Source of the DNA: a virus
DNA length: 64,000 nt
Reading direction: 5' to 3' (one strand)
IMG/VR virus record: IMGVR_UViG_3300036851_000411
Span: 1-64,000 of that record
A program made the position numbers and the translations under genes. Each line of letters opens with the position of its first letter. The first letter of the stretch is position 1. Shown here one piece after another: positions 21,039-45,500 of this stretch. Under the pieces are notes generated by a model. The model was not told the DNA's origin. It did not search any database and saw nothing but the letters and a program-made list of their open reading frames with translations.

Positions 21039-21133
21039 AGGAGCGTGGGGGATTCGAACCCTCGGCCCGGTGCGCTAACACCGGACGCCTCATTGATAGT
21101 GAGGTGCTTTCAGCCAGACTCAGCCAACGCTCC
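21039..21133 (-). tRNA. Type II (Ser-like body) tRNA with AUC anticodon
   Basis: GGAGCGT/ACGCTCC acceptor; D arm GCTGAGTCTGGCTGAAAGC; CCTCA-CTATCAA-TGAGG anticodon arm; 8-bp variable stem; GAGGG-TTCGAAT-CCCCC T arm. Confidence 0.85.
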
Positions 21134-21272: not shown

Positions 21273-21492
21273 AGCGTACAAATGAACGGGTGACAAACCT
21301 AACCGTCATGAATGCAACGTGTTACAACCCATTCACCGGCCGGCGCTAGAAGTCGTTGTCACGCGTTGGGTTGTTTCATCTCGCCACCCCAGTATAGGTG
21401 CCGCCGCAAGCGCGCGGTATTGACGCTAGCGTCAGATAGATAGACTACTGGTGCGACGACGAGCCGCTTCTCTGAAGAAGTGGGCTTAGGCG

Positions 21493-21518
21493 TTATCCAC
21501 ATTGTTTCACGTGAAACG
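21493..21518. promoter_or_regulatory. DnaA box plus parS
   Basis: TTATCCACA (21493-21501), then TGTTTCACGTGAAACG (21503-21518; 15/16 match to the parS consensus). Confidence 0.75.
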
Positions 21519-21552
21519 TTCATAACTCCACGCTGGAGACCCGGCGGATCTA

Positions 21553-21581
21553 TTGCGGATTATGCTTTAATCACATAATCT
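21553..21581 (+). promoter_or_regulatory. Class I promoter/operator upstream of the packaging operon
   Basis: TTGCGG-17-TAATCT enclosing TATGCTTTAATCACATA. Confidence 0.65.
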
Positions 21582-21721
21582 GAGCGCGCACCTGGCGACC
21601 GCCACGGTGCGCGCGCTGCGTTCGGGCACCTCGCCGAGGCAGTGCGCTCCGGACACGACGCCCCCGGCTCCCACGAGTGCGGGGGCGTCGATGGCCTCTA
21701 CTCGGTCTGGTGGAGCGGCGC

Positions 21722-22408
21722 GTGCCACGGCGACATCCTGCACCTCGTCCTATCCGACGAAGCCAGCGAGCGAAGCGCACGGCGCTCGATGCGATACGAC
21801 GCAGGCCTGCCGTTCCGCTGGAGCTCTGCGAGGCGGGTGGGAGTGAGTTTGCCCCGGCGCTCGATGTGGCCACGTGGCTCCGCGACACGTTCGTCACCGA
21901 AGGCTCGCCGCTCTACAACGAGGACCACAAGCACCTCGCCTTCGCGGCGATCGGCGTGCTGTGGACCAACGTTGCGAACTCAGGGCAGCAGCGCACGGTG
22001 CTCGCGACCGCGGAGATGCCGACGCCCAAGGGTGCGCGGTGGACGATCGCGCGCGCCAAGTATCAGCTGGCGCAATGGTTCGGCGACGTGCCGGACTTCG
22101 TCATCACGCTGTCGGCGCCGCTCCTCTCGGACGTGGATGACGCAACGTTCTGTGCGGTCCTCGAGCACGAGCTCTATCACTGCAGCCAGGCGCGGAATGA
22201 GTTCGGCGCGCCGAAGTGGCATCTCGATGGCTCGCCGGTCTTCGGGATCCGTGGTCACGATGTCGAGGAGTTCGTGTCGATCGTCGCGCGCTACGGTGCT
22301 GGAGCGACGCGGGTCGGTGCCCTCGTCCAGGCCGCCCAGCAACGACCGCTCGTCCAGGCGGCATCGATCGTTGGTGCCTGCGGGACGTGCATCGCGAGGG
22401 CCGCATGA
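21722..22408 (+). CDS. Putative phage metallopeptidase
   Basis: WFGDVPDFVITL, HELYHC (HExxH), GHDVEEF; GTG start with GGAG RBS. Confidence 0.8.
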   Translation: MPRRHPAPRPIRRSQRAKRTALDAIRRRPAVPLELCEAGGSEFAPALDVATWLRDTFVTEGSPLYNEDHKHLAFAAIGVLWTNVANSGQQRTVLATAEMPTPKGARWTIARAKYQLAQWFGDVPDFVITLSAPLLSDVDDATFCAVLEHELYHCSQARNEFGAPKWHLDGSPVFGIRGHDVEEFVSIVARYGAGATRVGALVQAAQQRPLVQAASIVGACGTCIARAA

Positions 22409-26500: not shown

Positions 26501-28114
26501 ATGCTTACCGCCGCCGAGATCGAAGGGCTCCTCGAGCGGGTCCGGTCCGGCACCCTGACGCTCGATCAGCAACGCGAGCTCTCGTTCCTCCTCTGTGATG
26601 TGCCGCCGGCGCCGCCGGCCATCCCGTTCACGGACTTCGTTGCCGAGGCGAAGCCCGACTATCGGTGGTGGGAGTGGAACACCCGACTCGCCGCGCGGCT
26701 GCAGGACGTGGCAGATGGGAAGATCCGTCGCCTCATGGTGTTCTGCCCGCCGCGCTATGGAAAGTCCGAGCTCACATCGAAGCTGTTCCCGGCCTACTAC
26801 CAGTACCGCTTCCCAATACGGCGCGTCGGGCTCAGTGCGTACGGCGAGGACCGCGCGCACGAGTATCTGAGCCACGCGCAGGAATACTATCTCCGCGTCG
26901 GCGGCAAGCTCCGCTCGTTGCGCGATGCGGGGCTCCGTCGTGGGTTCGAGGTCGAAGGCCGAGGCGGCATGTGGGCCGCGGGTCTCAATGGCGCGTTGCC
27001 TGGCCTCGGCTTCCACCTTGGCATTATCGACGATCCGCTGAAGAACATGGCGGAGGCGGCCAGTAAGGTCATCCAGTCGCGGAACATCAAGTGGTACAAC
27101 ACGACGTACTACAGCCGCCGGGAACCGAACGACGCGATCATTCTCATCACCACGCGGTGGCACCCGCGGGACCTCGCCGGGCAGATCCTCGAGCAGGAGC
27201 GCATCAACAAGGACGACGAGGGCGCGCTCGAAAACTGGCACATCGTCATCTACGACGAGACCCGCGACGAGAAGGAGCCCTACGACCTGCCGGACAATTG
27301 CTCGCTGGAGCCCGACTGGCGTAAGCACGGGGAGCTGCTGTGCCCCGAGCGATGGCCGGAGTCGGAGGTCAAGAAGAACCGCGCCAAGGGGACGTACAGC
27401 TATAGCACGGTCTACCAGCAGCGCCCGAAGACTTCGGAGGGCACGCGGTTCAAGGCTGAGTGGTTCCCCACGGTCGACGCCATGCCGGTGGATGTCACGG
27501 CGCGCGTGAGGTATTGGGATCTGGCGGGCACCGACGAGCCGAGCGACGAAGACTCGGATCCCGACTGGACGGTCGGCTTCCGCGTGTCACGCGGGCGGCA
27601 GGACCAGATCATCTATTTCGAGAAGATGAAGCGGTTCCGGAAGAAACCCGGCGGCCGCAATGCCACCATGCGTGAGACAGCGGAGGCCGACGCGCGGGAA
27701 TTCGGATCGGAGGAGCAACCCAATCGGCACGCGGTCGTGCAGTGGTGGGAAGGCGAGTCGGGGGTCGATGGCGGTGATCGCAATAAGGCGCTCGGCGCGG
27801 CGCTCGCCGGCCACATCTGCAAATTCGATCGACCCATCGCGAGTAAGGAAATGCGTCACGAGGTCCTCGCGGGGCAGGCGGAGGTCGGGAATGTGCGGCT
27901 AGTGGAGCCCAAGCGCGATGCGCATGGCAACCTGCTCGATGGGGAAGAGGACTGGATTCCAACGTTCCTCGACGAGATGACGAGCGTGCCGTTCGGGGCG
28001 CACGACGACATCGCGGACGCGGCGAGCGATGGCACGGCCAAAGTGCTCGACGCGCCCGAGCCCATTCTCGCCGAGATCGTGACGGTGGAGCTCAAGAGTC
28101 CCTTCGCGCTCTAG
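26501..28114 (+). CDS. terL: Terminase large subunit
   Basis: Walker A PPRYGKS, Walker B IIDDP, TRWH..DLAG, RYWDLA, HDDIADA nuclease motif. Confidence 0.95.
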   Translation: MLTAAEIEGLLERVRSGTLTLDQQRELSFLLCDVPPAPPAIPFTDFVAEAKPDYRWWEWNTRLAARLQDVADGKIRRLMVFCPPRYGKSELTSKLFPAYYQYRFPIRRVGLSAYGEDRAHEYLSHAQEYYLRVGGKLRSLRDAGLRRGFEVEGRGGMWAAGLNGALPGLGFHLGIIDDPLKNMAEAASKVIQSRNIKWYNTTYYSRREPNDAIILITTRWHPRDLAGQILEQERINKDDEGALENWHIVIYDETRDEKEPYDLPDNCSLEPDWRKHGELLCPERWPESEVKKNRAKGTYSYSTVYQQRPKTSEGTRFKAEWFPTVDAMPVDVTARVRYWDLAGTDEPSDEDSDPDWTVGFRVSRGRQDQIIYFEKMKRFRKKPGGRNATMRETAEADAREFGSEEQPNRHAVVQWWEGESGVDGGDRNKALGAALAGHICKFDRPIASKEMRHEVLAGQAEVGNVRLVEPKRDAHGNLLDGEEDWIPTFLDEMTSVPFGAHDDIADAASDGTAKVLDAPEPILAEIVTVELKSPFAL

Positions 28115-28165: not shown

Positions 28166-28207
28166 ACTCGCGGTCTCCTCTCCACGGCCCCACCCGGAGT
28201 GCATCGG

Positions 28208-29653
28208 ATGTCCAAACGGCGGCGCGGCGGCACTGCCCTCGACGCACTCGCCGGGTCGCCCGGCCCATCCGGTGGTCGGTCGAGCCCCTATGTCGAGCTG
28301 GGCTCCACCGGCCTCTCCAACGTCGGCGGGTTCGTTCGCGCGGATTTCCTCCCGCAGCTCGTCGGCCGGCAGGGGATCCTCGCTTATCAGGAGATGGAGA
28401 ACAACGATGCGCTGATCGGCGGCATCCTCTACGCCATGCAGATGCTGATCCGCTCGGGCGAGTGGACGATCGAGCCCAACGAGCTGGCGACGAAAGCGGC
28501 CGGACCGGGCGGGAAGATCAGCCCCGCGGCGCAGAACGCGGTCGACTTCATGCGCGATGCGTTGTTCGAAAGCATGGATCACCCGTTCGATGAGCTGATC
28601 ACCGACGCGCTCACGATGCTGCCCTACGGGTTCGCGCCCTGCGAGTCCGTGCTCAAGAAGCTTCCGGCGTCCAACCTCGGGCCCGCGCGCATCGGCTTCA
28701 AGTCAGTCCGGCTCCGCGCCCAGGATACGCTCTACAAGTGGGAGTTCGATCCGGAGTCCGGTGACCTGTTAGGCATGTGGCAACAGGACTTCCAGAACCC
28801 GGTCGCCTACATCCCGTACGACCGGTTGGCGTTGTTCCGCACCAACTCGAGCCGTGGCAATCCCGAGGGACGCTCGGTTCTCCGCAACTCGTACAAGTAT
28901 TACAAGCGCAAAGGGGCGATCGAGGAGGCCGAAGGTCGCGCCGCACTCCGATCGGCTGGTCTCGTGGTGATGCGGGTGCCGTGGAGCATCATGAACCCGA
29001 CCGCCGGCCAGATCGAGCGAAACATCTTCGCGCAGCTCAAGACCGCGCTCGCCAGCATCGCCGAGGACCGGCAGGGCGCGGTCATCCTGCCGAGTGATCC
29101 GTACGAGGGTCAGCAGGGCAAGCGTGGCGGCTATCAGTACGACATCGACTACAAAGTCGCCGATGGCCGGCGATCGGCCGACATGAGCACGCTGGTCGAG
29201 CGCATGGACAAGCGCATCGCCGGATCCGTGCTCGCCGACTTTATCCTCATCGGGCAGCAGGCTGCCGGTTCGTACGCCATGCACGGCGACAAGACCGAGA
29301 TGTTCACGAACGCGTTAGGTGGGTACAACCGCGTCATCGAGGCGGAGCTCAACCGCCGGACGATCCGACGATGGTGGCACCTCAACGGCCTGCCGGACGA
29401 GCTGCGTCCGCGACTCAAGCCGAAGAAGCTGTCGAAAGAGCAGCTCGAGAAGATCGGCGCGTTCGTCGGGCAACTGGCGGCTGCCGGCATGCTCCCGCCG
29501 GACAAGGCGTTGTCGAACAGACTGCTGGGGATGGCCGAGCTGCCACCGTCCGAGGTCCCGCTTCCGCCGCCGAGGAGCGCGACGCCCCCACCGGGGCGGC
29601 CTAACGCGCTCACAGGGACGGATCCCGACGACGAGGAGCACGCTGATGCCTGA
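28208..29653 (+). CDS. Portal protein
   Basis: Position after terL; ELGSTGL, YGFAPCE.V.K, GNPEGRSVLR, GSYA motifs. Confidence 0.85.
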   Translation: MSKRRRGGTALDALAGSPGPSGGRSSPYVELGSTGLSNVGGFVRADFLPQLVGRQGILAYQEMENNDALIGGILYAMQMLIRSGEWTIEPNELATKAAGPGGKISPAAQNAVDFMRDALFESMDHPFDELITDALTMLPYGFAPCESVLKKLPASNLGPARIGFKSVRLRAQDTLYKWEFDPESGDLLGMWQQDFQNPVAYIPYDRLALFRTNSSRGNPEGRSVLRNSYKYYKRKGAIEEAEGRAALRSAGLVVMRVPWSIMNPTAGQIERNIFAQLKTALASIAEDRQGAVILPSDPYEGQQGKRGGYQYDIDYKVADGRRSADMSTLVERMDKRIAGSVLADFILIGQQAAGSYAMHGDKTEMFTNALGGYNRVIEAELNRRTIRRWWHLNGLPDELRPRLKPKKLSKEQLEKIGAFVGQLAAAGMLPPDKALSNRLLGMAELPPSEVPLPPPRSATPPPGRPNALTGTDPDDEEHADA

Positions 29654-29867
29654 TTTCGGCCGGCACGTCACGTCGATCACCCCGAACCACGAGGGGCTCG
29701 ACGAGGACGACATCGCGCTCACCCGCCGGCATGCGCGCATCGCCGCCGAGTTCGCGGCGGAGCTGGAGCGGCAGGGCATGGACGAGAGTCGCGTCACCTT
29801 CATCACCGGTGACTACATCGCGAGCCTTGCGGCGAACGATGACCCCAAACAGCCGTGGGCATCGTGA
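29646..29867 (+). CDS. Hypothetical protein
   Basis: GAGGAG RBS; coupled. Confidence 0.5.
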   Translation: MPDFGRHVTSITPNHEGLDEDDIALTRRHARIAAEFAAELERQGMDESRVTFITGDYIASLAANDDPKQPWAS

Positions 29868-30062
29868 GCGACGCCGCCGTGCGCTGCCACTACGTGTGGG
29901 TGATGGCCACCACAGTCCGCGTGCAGACCGTGTGTGAGGACGACTCGTTCACGTTCGGCGTAGTCCACCCGGGTCAGGCCTTCCATGGCGTGCCGTACGA
30001 GGCGCTGCAGGCCGGGAAGTATGACGCGGCGATGCAGTTCGTCCCGTTCGGCACCTAACGCG

Positions 30063-32675
30063 GTGGCGACGCTCTTCGCGGCGCTCCGGGCCGAGGCGCA
30101 GTCGGCAGTCGCCAAGGGCGCGGCGATGTACGTCGGCCGCCGGCTGCTGAACGAGCGCGCGCTCCGCACCTGGTGGGTGGCGAACAGAAAGGCGGGTGAG
30201 CCTGACCTCGATCCGAACCCGCACATCACCGTTGCCTACTCGCGCACCGCGGTGCATCTGGCGCCCGACGATGACCTGGTCGTCGTGCCGCCGGCCGCCA
30301 TGATCGGCTTTCGCGTGTTAGGCACGGATCGCGCGGTCGTCCTGGAGATCGATGGCGCGCTCGCCCTGCGCGTCATGCACAGCGGCGATCCTGCCGGTCA
30401 CGCTGGCAACGACGGCGAGGCCGGCGTCCTCAATGCGCGCTTTGCCCAGTATCGCGAGGCGGGCGCGACGTGGGACCATGGGTCGTATACGCCGCATCTG
30501 ACGCTGTTCTACCTGCCCGCTGGCTACGACTCGACCGACTGGCGCGACGGCCCCGACCAGTGGCCGCCGTTGCCGGACTTCCCGCTGGTGTTCGGCCGGG
30601 AGCTGCGCGCGAACGGCGACGACGATGCGTTCGACCAGCCGGGCGCAGAGGCGGGCGTCGAGAAGCTGCTGCGCATGCTGTTCGGCGGTGAGCAGATCGC
30701 GAAGGCCACGACGGTCGCCGCGCCGATCCTTCGCGCGACATGGCTGGCGTGGCCTGATGCCGAGTCTCTCGCGGACACGTCGGACGAGTGGCTGTACCAC
30801 GTCACCAGCGCGGCCAACGCCGACGCGATCCTGACTGAGGGCTTCGCGCCCGACGATTGTGAGCGGACCATCACCGGTGGTGTGGACGAGGCGCAGTCGG
30901 TCGGGCGCTCGTTCTTCACCGACCGGGGCGGCGTCGCCTACTGGGCCGAGCGCATCGGGACTGCGTTAGGCGGCGTTCCGTTGGCCGTGGTTGCCATTCC
31001 GAAGCGAAGCGTCCCGCACGCCGAGCACGACGCGTTAGGCACGCAGCAGGCCGGCGGGCACGCCGCGTTTTGCGTTGAGGGTCCGATTCTGCCGCGTGGC
31101 GTCGGGCGGTCGACGTGGGGCGAGCTGGTTGACCGTGTTGTTGGCAAGCGCGAGACGAAGGTCCCAAGCCCGCCGCTCCGGCGCGGGTTGCAATGGCTCA
31201 CAGCCGCCGGCCAGCGGCGCGCGCAGTCCGCCGCCGACCGCTACGCCGCAGATCTCCGCGCCGGGCGCGCCACGGTGTTCGATCGCGTTCTGCGCGACGA
31301 GCGACGGGATCGCCAGCTGCAGCGCATGCGGCGCGAGGACGAGCCGCCGCCGCCGACGCTCATCGACACACTCGCGGCGACGTACCGCCGACGCCTCGAG
31401 CGGCATTACCACAACGTCGAGCACCAGTACGCCGACGTAGTGGAAGAGGCACGCCGGGACCGCGCGGAGTGGGATGGGATGATGGAGTCCTATGTCCGCG
31501 ACGGTGGCAGTCGCTACCTCGTGACGAAAGAGTGGGTGACCGCCGAGGATGAGCGGGTGCGTCACGCCCACGCCGCGCTCCACGGCCGCACCATTCCGTA
31601 CGACGCGCTCTTTCAGGGTCAGCACGGACCGGTCTGGGGGACGCCCGACGGACTCGGATGTCGGTGCCGACTTCGCGTTGCGTTCCCGACAATCGACGGC
31701 GACGCGCTCGAGGAGTCAGCCGAGAAGTCGTTGACACGCTCCGTCGGTGCCTGGCTCGTGGCCAAATTCCGCCCCGCGCAACACCGCGTGCCGGGCGGTC
31801 TGCCGCGTGGTGGTCGGTGGGCAGGCTCGGCGTCGGCGCGAGCGCACCAGACGCTCGCCGTGTTGCCGTCGGCGGACGATGCGGGGCATTACGTGGCGGT
31901 GCCATTCCCGCTGCATCAGCGGTTCGAGCATGAGCGGGCGTATGGACGTGCGATTTCGATGCGTGCCCGCCCGACGGTCGAGTCGGTGCCGCTGTCGGAG
32001 CTCCACGCCACGCAAGCACTCGTGCACCGCGCTGGCGTCGCACGGTGGATCGACGGCAGGGACGAGGCCGATGCGCAACCCGCGCGCCTGATGCGTGATC
32101 CGAGCGGACGCGTGCTCATCCAGCAGGGCCATCATGAGGCGACCGCAGCGCGGCTCCGAGGGGACACGCACCTCGACGCCGAGGTCTACGATCTCGCGTC
32201 CGAGGCGCTCTGGAAGGAATGGGCACCGACCGACGTACCTGAGCACATCCAGAAAGCGCTCGACGCCAGACTCGGGATTTCGGATATCGAAAAGTCGGAA
32301 GACGAGCAACGGCTCGTTACCGGATGGGCGCTCGTCTGCACGGAGCCCGACGGCACGCCGCTGGTCGATCGACAGAATGACATCGTCGATATCCGCGAGC
32401 TCGAGCAGGCCGCGCACCGTTTCATGGTGGAGTATGCCGACGGTGGGATTGTGCATCTGCGCGACGCGGACGGCGAGCCCATTGTCGCTGGCCGGATCGT
32501 CGAGTCCATGGTGGTGACGCCCGAGCTCAAGGCGGCGTTAGGCCTGCCGGGGGACACGCCACTCGGCTGGCTCGTGACCTTCCATGTCACGAGTGACGAG
32601 GTGTGGGCGCGCGTGAAAGCGGGCGAGCTCCGCATGTTTTCGATCGGCGGGAAGGCGGACCGCGTACCGGTTTGA
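30063..32675 (+). CDS. Multidomain head protein: Acb1-like 2H phosphoesterase + ART-like + MuF + ParB-like + XkdF-type prohead protease
   Basis: PHITVAYS/PHLTLFY; LYHVTS..NADAIL.EG; KEWVT.EDERVR.AH..LHG...GCRC; LHATQ...QGHH; EQRLVTGWA...GWLV...MFSIGG. Start uncertain (29985/30063/30126). Confidence 0.8.
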   Translation: MATLFAALRAEAQSAVAKGAAMYVGRRLLNERALRTWWVANRKAGEPDLDPNPHITVAYSRTAVHLAPDDDLVVVPPAAMIGFRVLGTDRAVVLEIDGALALRVMHSGDPAGHAGNDGEAGVLNARFAQYREAGATWDHGSYTPHLTLFYLPAGYDSTDWRDGPDQWPPLPDFPLVFGRELRANGDDDAFDQPGAEAGVEKLLRMLFGGEQIAKATTVAAPILRATWLAWPDAESLADTSDEWLYHVTSAANADAILTEGFAPDDCERTITGGVDEAQSVGRSFFTDRGGVAYWAERIGTALGGVPLAVVAIPKRSVPHAEHDALGTQQAGGHAAFCVEGPILPRGVGRSTWGELVDRVVGKRETKVPSPPLRRGLQWLTAAGQRRAQSAADRYAADLRAGRATVFDRVLRDERRDRQLQRMRREDEPPPPTLIDTLAATYRRRLERHYHNVEHQYADVVEEARRDRAEWDGMMESYVRDGGSRYLVTKEWVTAEDERVRHAHAALHGRTIPYDALFQGQHGPVWGTPDGLGCRCRLRVAFPTIDGDALEESAEKSLTRSVGAWLVAKFRPAQHRVPGGLPRGGRWAGSASARAHQTLAVLPSADDAGHYVAVPFPLHQRFEHERAYGRAISMRARPTVESVPLSELHATQALVHRAGVARWIDGRDEADAQPARLMRDPSGRVLIQQGHHEATAARLRGDTHLDAEVYDLASEALWKEWAPTDVPEHIQKALDARLGISDIEKSEDEQRLVTGWALVCTEPDGTPLVDRQNDIVDIRELEQAAHRFMVEYADGGIVHLRDADGEPIVAGRIVESMVVTPELKAALGLPGDTPLGWLVTFHVTSDEVWARVKAGELRMFSIGGKADRVPV

Positions 32676-32722
32676 GCATAGCTCGAGCGGGGTAGATTCG
32701 TCCGGGTTCCGTGGCACGACGC

Positions 32723-32750
32723 TTGACTCTATGTGATAATCGCATAAGTT
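32723..32750 (+). promoter_or_regulatory. Class I promoter/operator upstream of scaffold and capsid
   Basis: TTGACT-C-TATGTGATAATCGCA-TAAGTT. Confidence 0.8.
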
Positions 32751-32816
32751 GCGCGACGTGAAGACACCAGCCGCCCTCGCCGAGCGCCCCATGGGCCTGT
32801 CGTAAGGCTCGATGCG

Positions 32817-33791
32817 ATGCCGAGCGACGCCTCGACTCCGACGTTCCTCCGGCGGCTCCGCCTCCGTGAGGTGTCGCTGGTCCCGCGCGGCGCGAACCAG
32901 CGGGCGGACGTGCTCATCGTCAAATCCGACGCCGACCCCGGTCCCGCCTCCGCGGAGCGCTCCATGAGAAACCCGATCGTGAAGTTCCTCGGTGGCCTCA
33001 AGCACGCGGTCCTCGCCATGGCCACGACCGACGCCCAGAGGGCCGCGGTCGCGAAGGGTTTTGGCGACGCCGAGGCCGCGCTCGCCGAACCGGTCACCGA
33101 TGGTGGCGCCGACAACGGGGATGGGAATGGTGCGGCTGCGGTCGACGTAGCCGCGATCGCCGATGCCGTGGCCGAGAAGATGGCGGCGCGCTGCGCGAAG
33201 GCGGGCTGTGGTGGGATGATCGAGAAGGGCAAGTGCGCCAAGTGCGGCGCCATGACCAAGGCCGACAACTCGGGAGATGCCGCGATGGATCAGGAAGCGA
33301 TCAACAAGGCGATCGGCGACGCGGTCGGCGCGGTCCGGACCGAGTTCACCACGGCGATCACGAAAGCGCAGGCCGACATCACGAAGGCGAACGAGCGCGC
33401 TGACGCCGCCGAGGCCAAGGTCGCCACGCTCGAGAAGGCGCAGAGCGAGCAGACGAACATCGCGAAGGCGCAGGAGCTGCTCGGCGAGCTGCCGGGCGAT
33501 GCCAAGCCGATCGCGAGCCTCCTCGCGAAGGCCAGCCCGGAAGAGCGCGCCGAGTTCGAGAAGATCGCGAAGGCCGGGAACGCCGCGACGCAGAGCGCCC
33601 GCCTGTTCGTGCCCGCCGGCCGCGATGTCGCGATGAGCGGCAGTGCGCTTGCCGAGATCGAGTCGAAGGCCGCCCAGGTGGCCAAGGACCAGAAGATCAC
33701 GAAGGAGCAGGCGTTCGACGTGGTCGTCAAGGCGGATCCGTCGCTCTACACGCGCTACCGCGCGGAGAACGAGATCCGTCCGCAGAGCTGA
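32817..33791 (+). CDS. Scaffolding protein with an N-terminal protease-like strand
   Basis: LRLREVSLVPRGANQ, then Ala/Lys/Glu coiled coil; precedes the capsid genes. Confidence 0.7.
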   Translation: MPSDASTPTFLRRLRLREVSLVPRGANQRADVLIVKSDADPGPASAERSMRNPIVKFLGGLKHAVLAMATTDAQRAAVAKGFGDAEAALAEPVTDGGADNGDGNGAAAVDVAAIADAVAEKMAARCAKAGCGGMIEKGKCAKCGAMTKADNSGDAAMDQEAINKAIGDAVGAVRTEFTTAITKAQADITKANERADAAEAKVATLEKAQSEQTNIAKAQELLGELPGDAKPIASLLAKASPEERAEFEKIAKAGNAATQSARLFVPAGRDVAMSGSALAEIESKAAQVAKDQKITKEQAFDVVVKADPSLYTRYRAENEIRPQS

Positions 33792-34367: not shown

Positions 34368-35366
34368 ATGCCGTTCGCCCCGACCCGCGGTCAGATCCAC
34401 GTCGACCGCCTGCTGACGAACATCACGATCGGCTTCTTGCAGGATGCGCGAGCGTTCGTCGCACCGCGCGTCTTCCAGCGCGTTCCTGTCCTCAAGCAGA
34501 GCGACCGGTACGCCGTGTATGACCGCGGCTTCTTCTTCCGGAACCAGATGAAGAAGCGGGCGCCGGGCACCGAAGCGGCACGTGTCCACTACGCGATCGA
34601 CAACACGCCGACGTACTACGCCGACGTGTGGGCGCTCGCCAAGGACATCGCTGACCAGGACCGCGCCAACTACGACCAGCCGCTGCTCGGCCCGGACCGT
34701 GAGGCGTCGCTGTTCCTCGGTCAGCAGGCGCTCCTGAACCAGGAGACGGAGTTCGTCACCAACTGGTTCAAGACGGGCGTCTGGACGACCGAATACACCG
34801 GCGTCGCGTCGAGCCCGAGTGGCCCGCAGTTCCTCCAGTGGAACGACGCGGCGTCGAATCCGATCGAGGACATCCGTGCGCGGAAGCGCGCGGCCCGCGA
34901 GCTCACCGGGTACGAACTCAACATCCTCACGCTCGGCCGCGCGGTCTACGACGCGCTGCTCGATCACCCCGACATCATCGACCGCATCAAGTACGGCCAG
35001 ACGCCTGGCCAGCCGGCGATGGCGAACGAGCAGATCCTCGCGCAGCTGTTCGAAGTCGACGAGGTGAATGTCATGAACGGCATTCAGACGACTTCGAACG
35101 AAGGCGCGACCAACACGTTCGCCTTCATCGGCGGCAAGCACGCGATGCTCACGTACCGCCCACCGGCCCCGGGGCTCTTCGTCCCAGCAGCTGGCTACAC
35201 GTTCGTGTGGACGGGCTACCAGGGCAGCGCGGGCGAGCTCGGCACGGAAGTCAGCCAGTACCGGATGCCGGAGCTCAAGAGCGACCGCACCGAGATCGAG
35301 GCCGCGTACGACCAGAAGCTCGTGTCGGCCGACCTCGGCGTGTTCTTCGCCAGCGCCGTCGCGTAA
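34368..35366 (+). CDS. Major capsid protein
   Basis: HVDRLLTNI.IG, F..VPV.KQSDRY, WND.ASNPIEDI, LLDHPDIIDRIKY; strongly biased codons. Confidence 0.88.
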   Translation: MPFAPTRGQIHVDRLLTNITIGFLQDARAFVAPRVFQRVPVLKQSDRYAVYDRGFFFRNQMKKRAPGTEAARVHYAIDNTPTYYADVWALAKDIADQDRANYDQPLLGPDREASLFLGQQALLNQETEFVTNWFKTGVWTTEYTGVASSPSGPQFLQWNDAASNPIEDIRARKRAARELTGYELNILTLGRAVYDALLDHPDIIDRIKYGQTPGQPAMANEQILAQLFEVDEVNVMNGIQTTSNEGATNTFAFIGGKHAMLTYRPPAPGLFVPAAGYTFVWTGYQGSAGELGTEVSQYRMPELKSDRTEIEAAYDQKLVSADLGVFFASAVA

Positions 35367-36114: not shown

Positions 36115-36729
36115 GTGGCGTTTACCGTCGAAGACGGTTCCGGGTTAGCCAACGCCACCGCGCTTGTTGCCGTGGCGACGGTCGATGCGTTCTGGGCCGA
36201 CCGCGGTGGCAACGCCACGTGGGATGCGATCGCCGACATTCCCTCCGGCGCGACCGAGGAGGAACAGAAGCAAGCGGCGATTGTAAAGGCGAGCGACTAC
36301 GTCCGCTCGCATCCCGGCTATCGCTGGCGCGGATCGAAGAAGACGGCCGCGCAGCGCATGCCATGGCCGCGCACCGGGGCGCAGGAACGCGACGGTGCCG
36401 AGGCGCTGCCTGACGACGCGGTGCCGTGGCAAGTCGTTGACGCCGTGTGCGTGCTCGCGCCTCGCGCCGCGGCCGGCGAGAACCTCTTCCCGGATCTCAC
36501 GCGCGGCGGGCAGATCGCGTCGCAGACGGTTGGGCCCATCTCGACGAGCTACTTCAAGAATGCGCCGGTCGGGAAGGTCCTCCAGGCGGTCGACGGGCTG
36601 GTTGCGCCGCTCCTCCGCCTCGGCCTGAGCGACGACCCGATCGACCCGTTCTTCTCGATCCTCTCGGTGCCTGACGTGTTCGTGGAGTCGAACTACTCCA
36701 ACCTGACCGGTGGAGCGGGTGCTCCGTGA
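36115..36729 (+). CDS. Head-tail adaptor (DnaT-like family)
   Basis: MAFTVEDGSGLANA, W.G.K....Q...WPR, VGPIS.SY. Confidence 0.8.
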   Translation: MAFTVEDGSGLANATALVAVATVDAFWADRGGNATWDAIADIPSGATEEEQKQAAIVKASDYVRSHPGYRWRGSKKTAAQRMPWPRTGAQERDGAEALPDDAVPWQVVDAVCVLAPRAAAGENLFPDLTRGGQIASQTVGPISTSYFKNAPVGKVLQAVDGLVAPLLRLGLSDDPIDPFFSILSVPDVFVESNYSNLTGGAGAP

Positions 36730-42593: not shown

Positions 42594-45500
42594 CTGAGCA
42601 CCTACACGCTCAATATTGCGATCAACGCTGGGCCGGCCCAAGCGGGCGGCCAGCTGGTCGTCCGCACGCTCGAGGAGATCAAGGCCGCAGCACAGCAGAC
42701 CGTCGCGGCGGTCTCGCAGTCGAACCAACTGCTCGGCCAGATCCTCGGTGCCGTGCAGACTGGTGCACAGCAAGGGGCCAACGGTGTCAAGCAGCTCAGC
42801 GCCCAGGTCTCCGCGCTCCAGCGGACGATGCAGAGCGCATGGGCGGTCGCCAAGCAGTGGCTCGCGTTCGCGGGGATCGGGCTCGGCGTCAAGCAACTCA
42901 TCGACTACGCCGACGGCTACCGGCTCGTCGAAGGGCGCATCAAGCTCACGACGAAGTCGACCGACGAGCTGCGCGCCGTCGAGGCGAAGCTGTTCGAGGT
43001 CGCCAACGCGACGCGCACGAGCTACGCGGCGACGGCCGATCTCTATTCGAAGGTCGCGCGATCGTCCGGTGAGCTCGGGATCAGCCAGCGGCAGGTCGTC
43101 ACACTGACGCAGGCCGTCGGCCAAGCCCTGCAGATCTCCGGTGCGAGCACCGGGGAGGCGACGGCGGCGACGCTCCAGCTCGGGCAGGCGTTCAGCTCCG
43201 CGCGCCTCAGCGGCGACGAGCTGCGGTCCGTGCTTGAAAATGCGCCGCGCCTCGCCAAGGCAGTCGCCGACGGCATGGGCGTCACGGTGGGCCAGCTCCG
43301 CACGTTAGGCTCGCAGGGGAAGCTCACTGGCGAAGCCGTCGCGAAAGCGATTCTCAGCCAGGCCGACGCGCTCAACCGGGAATTCAAGAGCGTCCCGCTC
43401 ACGATCGGCCAGAGCTTTACGGTTCTGGGCAACTACATCCAGCGGTACGTCGGCTGGTCGGACCGCGCGACGGGTGCCAGTGCGCTGCTGGCGCGCACGA
43501 TCATCCTGCTCGCGCATAACGTCGACCTCCTCGCCAACTTCGCGATCTACGCCGGGGTCGTATTCCTGCTGTATCGGAACCTGACACTCCTCACCGCCGG
43601 CATGGCGATCGCCCGGGTGGCGGTGCTTGCGCTCGCGGCGGGGAACTGGGCGGGCGTCGCGTCCACGTTAGGCCTCACCGCCGCGGTCAATGGGCTCAAG
43701 GCGGCCATCGCCTCGACCGGCATCGGGCTCCTCCTCATCGCGATCGGCGCCATCGCCGTGGCGCTCTACACGTGGTACCAGCGCACGAAGCAGCAGAAGG
43801 AGGCGCTCCGCGAGCTCTCGGACGAGATCAAGAAGCAGAAGCAGGCGTCCGACAGCGCGCGCGCCAGTGTGCTCAACGAGGCCGCGGCCGATCAGATCCG
43901 GCAGCAGCAGCAGCTCGAGGCGCTCCGCCGCAGTGGGCCCAAGGCACTGGAGCGCGTGCAGAACGTGCAGTCCGATGAGAACGCCGCGCTCGAGGAGGGG
44001 AAACGTCTCTACGGCGAGTATGTGAAGAAGTCCGAAGAGGCGGCGCAAGCCCGCGGCAAAGCTATCACCGTCGAGAGGGATTTCACGAAAGCGCTCGCCG
44101 GTGGCAACAAGGAGGCGCAGGCCTTCCTCCTTATCGCTGCCGAGACGGCGCTCCGGAAGCGTGCGGTCACCACCGAGACGGAGCTCGTCACGAAGGCAAT
44201 CGAGATCCAGAACGACCGCCTCGAGAAGGAAGCCGACGCGTGGGCGACGGTGGGGCAGGCCGTGCGTCAGGCACAGCGCGACGGCGCTGGGCTCAAGACG
44301 CTCACCACGGCGTATCAGAACGCGGAGACGCGGGCGCGCGCCGCGGCTGGGGCCTCTGGTGGCTACGCGCTCGCGTTAGGGAACGAGCTGCGCGCGATCG
44401 AGAACTACGTCAAGGAGGCCGAGCGCGCGACGGAGATCGGGGAGGCGATCAACGGGCTGTCGTTCGACGCCGCGGCGATCGTGACGAAAGAGATGAACGC
44501 GCGCTACAAGCTCGCCGACGCCCTCGACGAGCAGACGCGGAAGACAAAGGACCTCGCCCGACTCCAGGCCGAGGCGCAGAACCGACAGCTCAAGGCGACG
44601 CTCCCGTCCACCCCGCCCAAGAGCGCCTTTGCGCAGGCGAACGACGCCGAGGAGGGGGACATCGCGGCCCGCATTCAGGCGCGGGCGCAGGAGATGAAAC
44701 TCATCGTCGAGAACGTGTTCCGCGGCATGCAGGAGTCGGCGGCGCAGTTCTTCCTCAACGTCTTCACGCAGGGTATCCGCTCGTTTCGCGATCTGTTCAA
44801 CAGCATCCGGCTGCTCTTCCTCCAGATGCTGGCGCAACTGGCCGCCGCGAAGCTCGTGACGAAGCTGCGCGACACGATCCGCGCGCAGGTCGGCGGGGTG
44901 AGCGAAGACGGCCTGACGAAGATCGCGCCCACTTCGCCCGGGTACGGGACCGCTGCATCGAAGCTCGGGGCGGCGGGCCAGGTGGCCGGCGCCGTGGGAT
45001 TCGTCGCCTCCATCATCACGGGCTTCGGCAACACCCTCGCCAAGAGCCGCGACCAGGCGAAATACGGCGGGGCGGCGTTAGGCTTCGCCGCGTTCGGCCC
45101 GGTCGGGGCACTGGCCGGCGCCGCGCTCTCGCTCGCGGGGTTCGACAAGAAAGCGAAGGCCGCGGCGAAGGCAATGGCTGAGGCGCAGAAGGAGTTCGCG
45201 CGCAACCTCGACAGCTTCGTGGCGACGGCGTTCGGCACCGGCTCGGGGCTCGCCGACGCGTTGCGCGCGAATCAGCAGGCGCGGGACGAGCTCCGGAAAG
45301 AAGCCAACGTGGCGCTCTCGGGCAAGAAAAACGAGAAGGTCCGTAACCAGCAACTCGAGGAGATCGACACCGCGACGAAAGCCAATGCCGCTCGGCTGGC
45401 GAAGGAGTTCACCGACGGCATCGAGGCGCAGATCAACGCCCTCACCGGGAAGAGCGACCTCAACGCGCGGGCCGCGCTGGAAAAGGAGTACGCCGAGAAC

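Follow-up and report, generated by a model that had tools for sequence, protein, structure and literature searches.

A candidate effector-carrying head protein with Acb1-type, MuF and XkdF protease domains in a soil phage

Polyvalent proteins join 2-15 disparate domains in one polypeptide, are encoded with virion genes and are predicted to be injected together with the phage DNA (Iyer et al. 2017, PMC5512222). MuF, ADP-ribosyltransferase (ART) and DdrB-like ParB domains are the hubs of their domain network; H-Y-D ARTs and ParB domains occur in proteins predicted to be packaged and injected, and 2H domains are fused to MuF or portal proteins, where they were suggested to degrade the nucleotide signals of defense systems (PMC5512222). 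T4 Alt provides the experimental precedent for an ART that is packaged and injected (PMC5512222). Moreover, a 2025 preprint notes extra domains, proteases included, in 13 of 75 viral 2H phosphodiesterases, and a 2021 paper names XkdF only as a probable head protease. Here, we describe an 870-aa polyvalent head protein that joins an Acb1-type 2H phosphoesterase domain, a MuF domain and an XkdF-type prohead protease, and which may carry effectors into the capsid. It is encoded at positions 30,063 to 32,675 of the stretch analyzed (the window), which is 64,000 nucleotides long and corresponds to positions 1 to 64,000 of the IMG/VR virus record IMGVR_UViG_3300036851_000411. This record, of 82,133 bp, comes from a soil metagenome and has a GC content of ~67% and a CheckV completeness of 90%.

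Domains of the polyvalent head protein

The protein belongs to the polyvalent class, as Acb1, MuF and protease domains share one polypeptide with a hub domain, encoded between portal and capsid genes. Its open reading frame (ORF) and the parts we distinguish in it are as follows:

30063..32675, plus strand: whole polyvalent head-protein ORF, with a uniform coding signal and 0 differences from an independent contig
30120..30647, plus strand: Acb1-type 2H phosphoesterase, residues ~20-195, called from Pfam PF23474, alignment to T4 Acb1 (7t26) and motif conservation
30768..31118, plus strand: LYHVT orphan domain, residues 236-352, with a possible Arr/Tpt1-type ADP-ribosyltransferase fold
31182..31706, plus strand: MuF (SPP1 gp7 / Mu gp30-like) minor head protein domain, residues 374-548, called from PF04233 and phrog_3517
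31779..31820, plus strand: linker motif QHRVPGGLPRGGRW (QHRVPGG..GGRW), residues 573-586, which resembles the RDxxGRW of cargo-XkdF relatives
31971..32198, plus strand: ParB/Srx-like domain, residues 637-712, with a degenerate QGHHE (consensus DGHHR), called from alignment A1
32280..32672, plus strand: XkdF-type (Peptidase_S78_2) prohead serine protease with conserved D769, H798, S815 and S860

Three of these domains are established by profile matches, with which the PHROG matches agree. The N-terminal one matches PF23474 with an E value of 5.2e-11 (42.9 bits against a cut-off of 27). Its two HxT motifs, HITV (residues 54-56) and HLTL (145-147), lie in PHITVAYS and PHLTLFY, line up with the motifs of T4 Acb1 (PDB 7t26) and are conserved across ~20 relatives. 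Judged by these motifs, the domain would be an intact 2H phosphodiesterase, one that may hydrolyze the cyclic oligonucleotides of the cyclic oligonucleotide-based antiphage signaling system (CBASS). T4 Acb1 (gp57B; PDB 7t26/7t27; PF23474) shares the above-cut-off match and both aligned catalytic motifs, although it is a free-standing protein of ~150 aa, whereas here the domain forms the N-terminus of an 870-aa head protein and carries an insert of ~20 residues at residues 100-122.

The MuF profile (Phage_Mu_F, PF04233) matches residues 442-537 with 34.6 bits against a cut-off of 29.6, and with 36.7 bits in the genome search, where it is the only match to this profile in the 82-kb record. The region also matches phrog_3517 (head morphogenesis), and one relative, P0046, aligns across residues 374-548; the above-cut-off profile and the position after the portal gene together identify a MuF domain. 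In the linker that follows, PRGGRW (31803-31820) resembles the RDxxGRW found near the N-terminal cargo of the cargo-XkdF relatives P0038, P0066 and P0070, a motif that could be a targeting or cleavage signal.

At the C-terminus, PF14550 (Peptidase_S78_2) covers residues 740-867 with an E value of 4.5e-19 and 69.1 bits against a cut-off of 24 (73.2 bits in the genome search), and D769, H798, S815 and S860 fall in invariant or near-invariant columns of the alignments (A1 and A2; 83 relatives). XkdF is present as a single copy in the 82-kb record, in which no HK97-type S78, ClpP or S49 protease was found. Thus, the fusion protein is probably the working maturation protease, its XkdF domain being the only recognizable one of this phage and its activity a prediction from conserved residues.

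All parts lie in one uninterrupted frame that runs from a GTG at 30063 to the stop at 32675. The same frame extends up to an ATG at 29985 and there overlaps the upstream ORF; because that ORF ends at 30058, we take the GTG as the likely start, with ATG 30126 as an alternative. The stop codon of the upstream ORF sits within a CCTAACG heptamer (inside 30051-30062), 4 nt ahead of the GTG. The GC contents of the first, second and third codon positions (~0.75/0.50/0.83) are the same in all nine segments of the ORF, including those without homologs. Moreover, an independent 26.6-kb Logan contig from the same soil metagenome spans 29500-33200 with 0 differences, 0 gaps and no joints, at a word depth of ~12.6x across the region. 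This contig comes from the single run that holds the sequence, that is, from the same sample and hence probably the same reads, so its agreement excludes an error of one assembler but not one of the sample. No RNA runs are listed among the sequencing runs holding the sequence. The ORF is real and well-formed.

The LYHVT and ParB/Srx-like domains

Between the Acb1 and MuF domains lies a region with a LYHVT motif at residue 244, in which His246 is the candidate histidine. This domain has no match in Pfam even at an E value of 10, no significant relative in PHROGs, NCBIfam or two large-database searches (at near and shorter lengths), and only chance matches among PDB sequences. Similarly, a pattern scan of IMG/VR for the domain found nothing, nor did the PF12120 and PF18760 profiles over the record.

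Several sub-threshold leads point to an Arr/Tpt1-type fold. When the trimmed domain was compared with the ESM Atlas, 24 of the 30 nearest named clusters were Arr-ms rifampin ADP-ribosyltransferases, at a score (0.93) that is reached by chance in 4-10% of cases; a PARP-containing cluster and Tox-ART-HYD1 are among the other near clusters. The single NCBIfam match, sub-threshold at E 0.24, is to the RNA 2'-phosphotransferase NF002013 (KptA/Tpt1) and falls at the LYHVT strand, while phrog_6170 matches the domain at E 0.25, again sub-threshold. A protein of Bacillus phage PBS1 has the motif as well and weakly matches Tpt1 at the same profile positions. PBS1 gp278 was rejected as a lead: its pairwise BLASTP E value is 1e-7 but rises to 4 against the database, and its own relatives occur only in PBS1-like phages, which precluded a profile. 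A single-sequence AlphaFold2 model of the domain has a predicted local distance difference test (pLDDT) score of 47.3, too poor for a firm fold call. With this model, Foldseek placed KptA/Tpt1 chains at ranks 2-7 (E 0.065-0.2), with poor template-modeling scores and none significant, and VIA-align returned generic, unrelated alpha/beta folds only (best Z 4.3). The Arr and Tpt1 leads are not independent, since they largely rest on the same short motif. We consider an ART fold for this domain more likely than not, if unproven. The superfamily (Arr / Tpt1 / H-Y-[EDQ] clade) is marked by a His in strand 1, an aromatic residue in strand 2 and an acidic one in strand 5; by comparison with Arr, the LYHVT His246, SFFT (283-286) and EHD (321-323) are candidates at best for these residues.

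For the region between the linker motif and the protease, the case rests on relatives. Seven cluster representatives (alignment A1) cover residues ~620-870, that is, this region and XkdF. Five of the seven share the pattern L-S-D-L-x-A-x-Q ... KP-x-V-V-R ... (D/S)-(G/S)-H-H-R, four of them with an exact DGHHR, and two A1 relatives are likewise degenerate at the signature. Among the A1 members, ParBc_2 was matched in 4 of 8 (best E 0.0043), ParB_N in 1 and DUF1015 in 3; used against structures, the A1 profile weakly matched SbnI (5uje, E 0.11) and chromosomal ParB (4umk, E 0.32), exactly at the signature motif. The region itself has no direct Pfam match, and ParB_N (PF02195) was not found directly in the record. 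Because these weak matches agree with one another, we accept a ParB/Srx fold for residues 637-712 with good confidence. The signature (D)GxxR with its active-site arginine is absent: the protein has QGHHE, with GHHE at residues 689-692, where its relatives bear DGHHR. Having lost both the Asp and the Arg of the signature, the domain is probably inactive, and it is more likely to be a non-catalytic structural or adaptor module than an enzyme.

These results can be set against an initial annotation made from the DNA sequence alone, which had read the ORF as a fusion of five domains and a short motif. Its fusion in a single frame stands, as do the 2H phosphoesterase with both HxT motifs, the MuF domain, the QHRVPGG..GGRW motif and the XkdF-like protease at 32.3-32.67 kb. 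It had also proposed an LYHVT ART/Tpt1-like domain and a ParB/Srx-like domain with GHHE. For the former, the motif is present and the ART/Tpt1 assignment has sub-threshold leads only; for the latter, the fold is backed through its relatives, while an enzymatic role on nucleotides is improbable now that the signature Arg is seen to be lost. Overall, three domains are proven by profile, the ParB-like one is well supported but degenerate, and the LYHVT domain is unproven.

Relatives of the protein and its gene neighborhood

How unusual the protein is depends on whether it is taken whole or in parts. Besides the protein itself, an index of 5.8 billion proteins holds no full-length relative, and in a set of 1.84 billion proteins no representative covers more than ~30% of it. 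Searches for full-length relatives in IMG/VR gave only one weak match to the MuF region, and those in GTDB genomes and INPHARED gave none; a portal-based search found no sister phages. A single-sequence AlphaFold2 model of all 870 aa reaches a pLDDT of 36.6, too poor for a firm fold call. The five-domain combination had initially been annotated as unfamiliar, and its exact form is indeed unmatched in the databases searched and was not found described in the literature; the concept itself is not new. The polyvalent class and most of the pairwise fusions (2H-MuF, MuF-protease, Acb1-XkdF) are already known, and the five-part combination alone is new.

The protease end connects the protein to a larger group. 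Among the best 150 matches, 144 were XkdF-matching cluster representatives, of which 71 have XkdF at the C-terminus behind a cargo of at least 90 aa. Another 22 begin with XkdF and continue for 90 aa or more beyond it; in 39 XkdF stands alone, and in 12 it lies in the middle. In 83 multidomain XkdF proteins, Pfam recognized Acb1 (18), Zeta toxin (6), ChaB (3), NUDIX (2), Gln deamidase (2) and ART-PolyVal (2), and in single cases a histidine phosphatase, topoisomerase IB, PBECR1 and a peptidoglycan-binding domain; the count for Acb1 is inflated, because a query holding both domains ranks Acb1-XkdF proteins first. In P0014, a relative of 1318 aa, Acb1 occurs together with Zeta toxin and an ART. 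This list is, by its domain content, a typical polyvalent repertoire, and such varied cargo on a C-terminal XkdF suggests that placing cargo on the protease is a general architecture. No description of XkdF as a general hub for cargo was found in the literature, and the 2017 survey of polyvalent proteins (PMC5512222) never mentions XkdF.

Cargo-XkdF proteins are common in metagenomes, and many of them are Acb1-XkdF fusions. Compared with such Acb1-XkdF and other cargo-XkdF proteins (P0003, P0005, P0006, P0049, P0066 and P0070), our protein has the same plan of a C-terminal XkdF with N-terminal cargo, and in some of them the ParB-XkdF module is shared as well, at 34-37% identity across residues 620-870. 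However, they consist of two or three domains, lack MuF and LYHVT, and none covers more than ~30% of the 870 aa. The polyvalent proteins of the 2017 survey resemble it as single late-gene polypeptides of disparate effector domains with a MuF hub and a predicted co-delivery with DNA, and the components listed for them include 2H phosphoesterase, H-Y-D-type ART and ParB/Srx domains (PMC5512222). In contrast to that survey, which is without XkdF and whose processing peptidases are mainly zincin-like metallopeptidases, the processing enzyme here would be the only prohead protease of the phage itself, the ParB signature is degenerate and the LYHVT domain has no Pfam ART-PolyVal match. Actinophages, according to routine annotations, likewise have MuF and maturation protease in one gene after the portal, in high-GC siphovirus-type genomes, although no sequence similarity to them is detectable at E 1e-5. 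Finally, T4 Alt and the T4 internal proteins offer a functional analogy: an ART and anti-restriction proteins enter the proheads, are cut there by the prohead protease and leave the head together with the DNA (PMC5512222). In T4, however, cargo and protease (gp21) are separate genes and the cargo bears a short N-terminal targeting signal, whereas here the cargo is covalently joined to protease and MuF. Cultured phages of Synechococcus, Rhizobium and Pseudomonas also have Acb1-like 2H domains inside genes annotated as 'portal protein', for example at 43530-43976 in Pseudomonas phage phiPSA1 and at 21449-21868 in Rhizobium phage RHph_I72.

The gene order around the ORF is that of a head module: large terminase, portal, two small ORFs, polyvalent gene, scaffold-like gene, a 145-aa virion protein and major capsid. 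The placement between portal and scaffold, as first annotated, thus stands. The neighbors are:

26501-28114: large terminase, upstream of the portal
28199..29653, plus strand: Mu-type portal protein (PF06074, E 6e-23; phrog_113)
29646..30058, plus strand: pair of small ORFs with translational coupling (29646-29867 and 29864-30058) and no family match
32711-32740: promoter-like site, directly downstream of the polyvalent gene
32817..33791, plus strand: scaffold-like protein of 324 aa, matching the C-terminal non-protease part of protease-scaffold PHROGs
Between the scaffold-like and major capsid genes: 145-aa virion protein
34368..35366, plus strand: major capsid protein (phrog_1005, E 7e-84; PF03864)

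The two small ORFs encode 73 and 64 aa and are coupled through stop codons that overlap start codons (ATGCCTGA where the portal gene stops; GTGA); they match nothing in Pfam or PHROG. A promoter and terminator scan gave nothing decisive within the polyvalent gene. The 324-aa protein matches only the scaffold-like, non-protease tails of the 'head maturation protease' PHROGs 3244 and 80, and by these matches it looks like a scaffold separated from its protease. Elsewhere in the record, a DnaT_2-like putative single-stranded DNA-binding domain (PF20557, E 8.5e-36) follows directly after the capsid genes (36115-36729), and ARAGORN calls a 95-nt tRNA at 21039-21133 on the minus strand, labeled Asp with the anticodon ATC, of unusual length and anticodon.

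A candidate effector carrier and its alternatives

We somewhat favor the reading in which the protein is a MuF-anchored polyvalent effector carrier that is taken into the capsid and cut by the protease it contains. It would be expressed late, from the portal transcription unit, and could enter the procapsid by way of MuF, a domain that binds to the portal region in related phages, and perhaps also by way of the C-terminal XkdF protease, which would act on the inside together with scaffold and capsid proteins. There, the protease would cut the scaffold as well as the linkers within the polyprotein to which it belongs. The freed N-terminal cargo, namely the Acb1-type 2H phosphodiesterase and the orphan, possibly ART-fold domain, would stay in the head and enter the next host with the DNA, where the Acb1 domain might destroy CBASS-type cyclic-oligonucleotide immune signals. 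In this scheme, we infer that the protein is packaged, cleaves itself and is ejected, and likewise each of the enzyme activities. In favor of the carrier reading are the three domains above their Pfam cut-offs, the intact HxT motifs, the portal-to-capsid gene order, the single MuF and XkdF copies in the record, the frequent cargo on XkdF relatives, the Acb1-like domains within portal genes of cultured phages and the contiguity of the ORF. The proposal of the initial annotation, that counter-defense domains are carried into the capsid, cleaved free and injected, is the best supported one because the architecture fits the published MuF model (PMC5512222) and the protease keeps its Asp, His and Ser; the ParB-like domain, however, is probably not a nucleotide-targeting enzyme, and the ART assignment is unproven.

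Several points weigh against this reading. The phage is known from one metagenome only, and with the ART assignment unverified and the ParB-like domain looking inactive, the nucleotide-targeting arsenal may reduce to one enzyme. We know of no cleavage specificity described for XkdF, so no cleavage sites can be named. Fragments made by prohead proteases usually leave the capsid, which makes retention of the cargo an assumption, and T4 Acb1 is not known to be a virion protein. Furthermore, CBASS is reported to fire late in infection (PMC12991175; 10.1101/2023.05.21.541620), a timing that argues for a late action of Acb1 rather than for an injected one.

The main alternative, which the initial annotation did not consider and which we regard as possible but unlikely, starts from the protease: Acb1 would be tied to the prohead protease because the protease trips CBASS late, and the covalent link would be a built-in antidote to protease-sensing CBASS. 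The signal-degrader would then act in the producing cell, and being on the same polypeptide it would match the trigger in timing, location and stoichiometry. Packaging and injection would be incidental, and the idea is compatible with the carrier model. [quoted passage not shown] Two-domain Acb1-XkdF proteins without MuF do recur, but their share (18 of the 83 multidomain relatives) is inflated by a query that contains both domains. XkdF, however, carries many cargoes with no link to CBASS. Fusions of Acb1-like domains with portal and MuF proteins, neither of which is a protease, fit a general packaging logic better; the CBASS data, in addition, come from the T4 gp21 (S77) protease and not from XkdF. 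We did not find a link between Acb1-protease fusions and the 2026 report of CBASS activation by prohead proteases drawn in the literature.

It is also conceivable, although we think it quite improbable, that the protein is a MuF-type polymorphic toxin or a superinfection weapon whose N-terminal enzymes target the host, competitor cells or rival phages instead of serving in counter-defense. MuF-toxin fusions are widespread (PMC5512222, PMC3482391), the domains found in relatives of the protein include Zeta toxin, Gln deamidase and ART, and the orphan LYHVT domain may itself be an ART. Nevertheless, the best-defined cargo is an Acb1-family enzyme with a known role in degrading immune signals, no immunity-like gene follows the polyvalent ORF, and the effector domains are N-terminal to MuF, whereas those of classical MuF toxins are C-terminal. 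Least of all do we believe in an artifact in which a mistake of assembly or sequencing, or a chimeric contig, joined separate Acb1, MuF and protease genes: the sequence does come from one contig and one sample and has no full-length relative in the databases searched, but the Logan contig matches it throughout at ~12.6x, the frame has no in-frame stop over 2.6 kb and a uniform third-position GC phase, many unrelated proteins have two of these domains in one chain, and the record has no separate MuF or protease gene.

Each of the two leading readings would have consequences beyond this phage. If the antidote idea were true, cargo-XkdF fusions would be a widespread route, not found described in the literature, that couples counter-defense to capsid maturation. 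Since prohead proteases were recently reported as a CBASS trigger, the natural Acb1-XkdF fusions allow a direct test of such a trigger-antidote pairing. If the carrier model is true, this phage would bring effectors, an anti-CBASS enzyme among them, into its capsid as fusions with two head components that it cannot do without, and cargo release would fall to the maturation protease. In addition, the orphan LYHVT domain and the ParB-like module with its degenerate signature may represent new families of effectors or adaptors.

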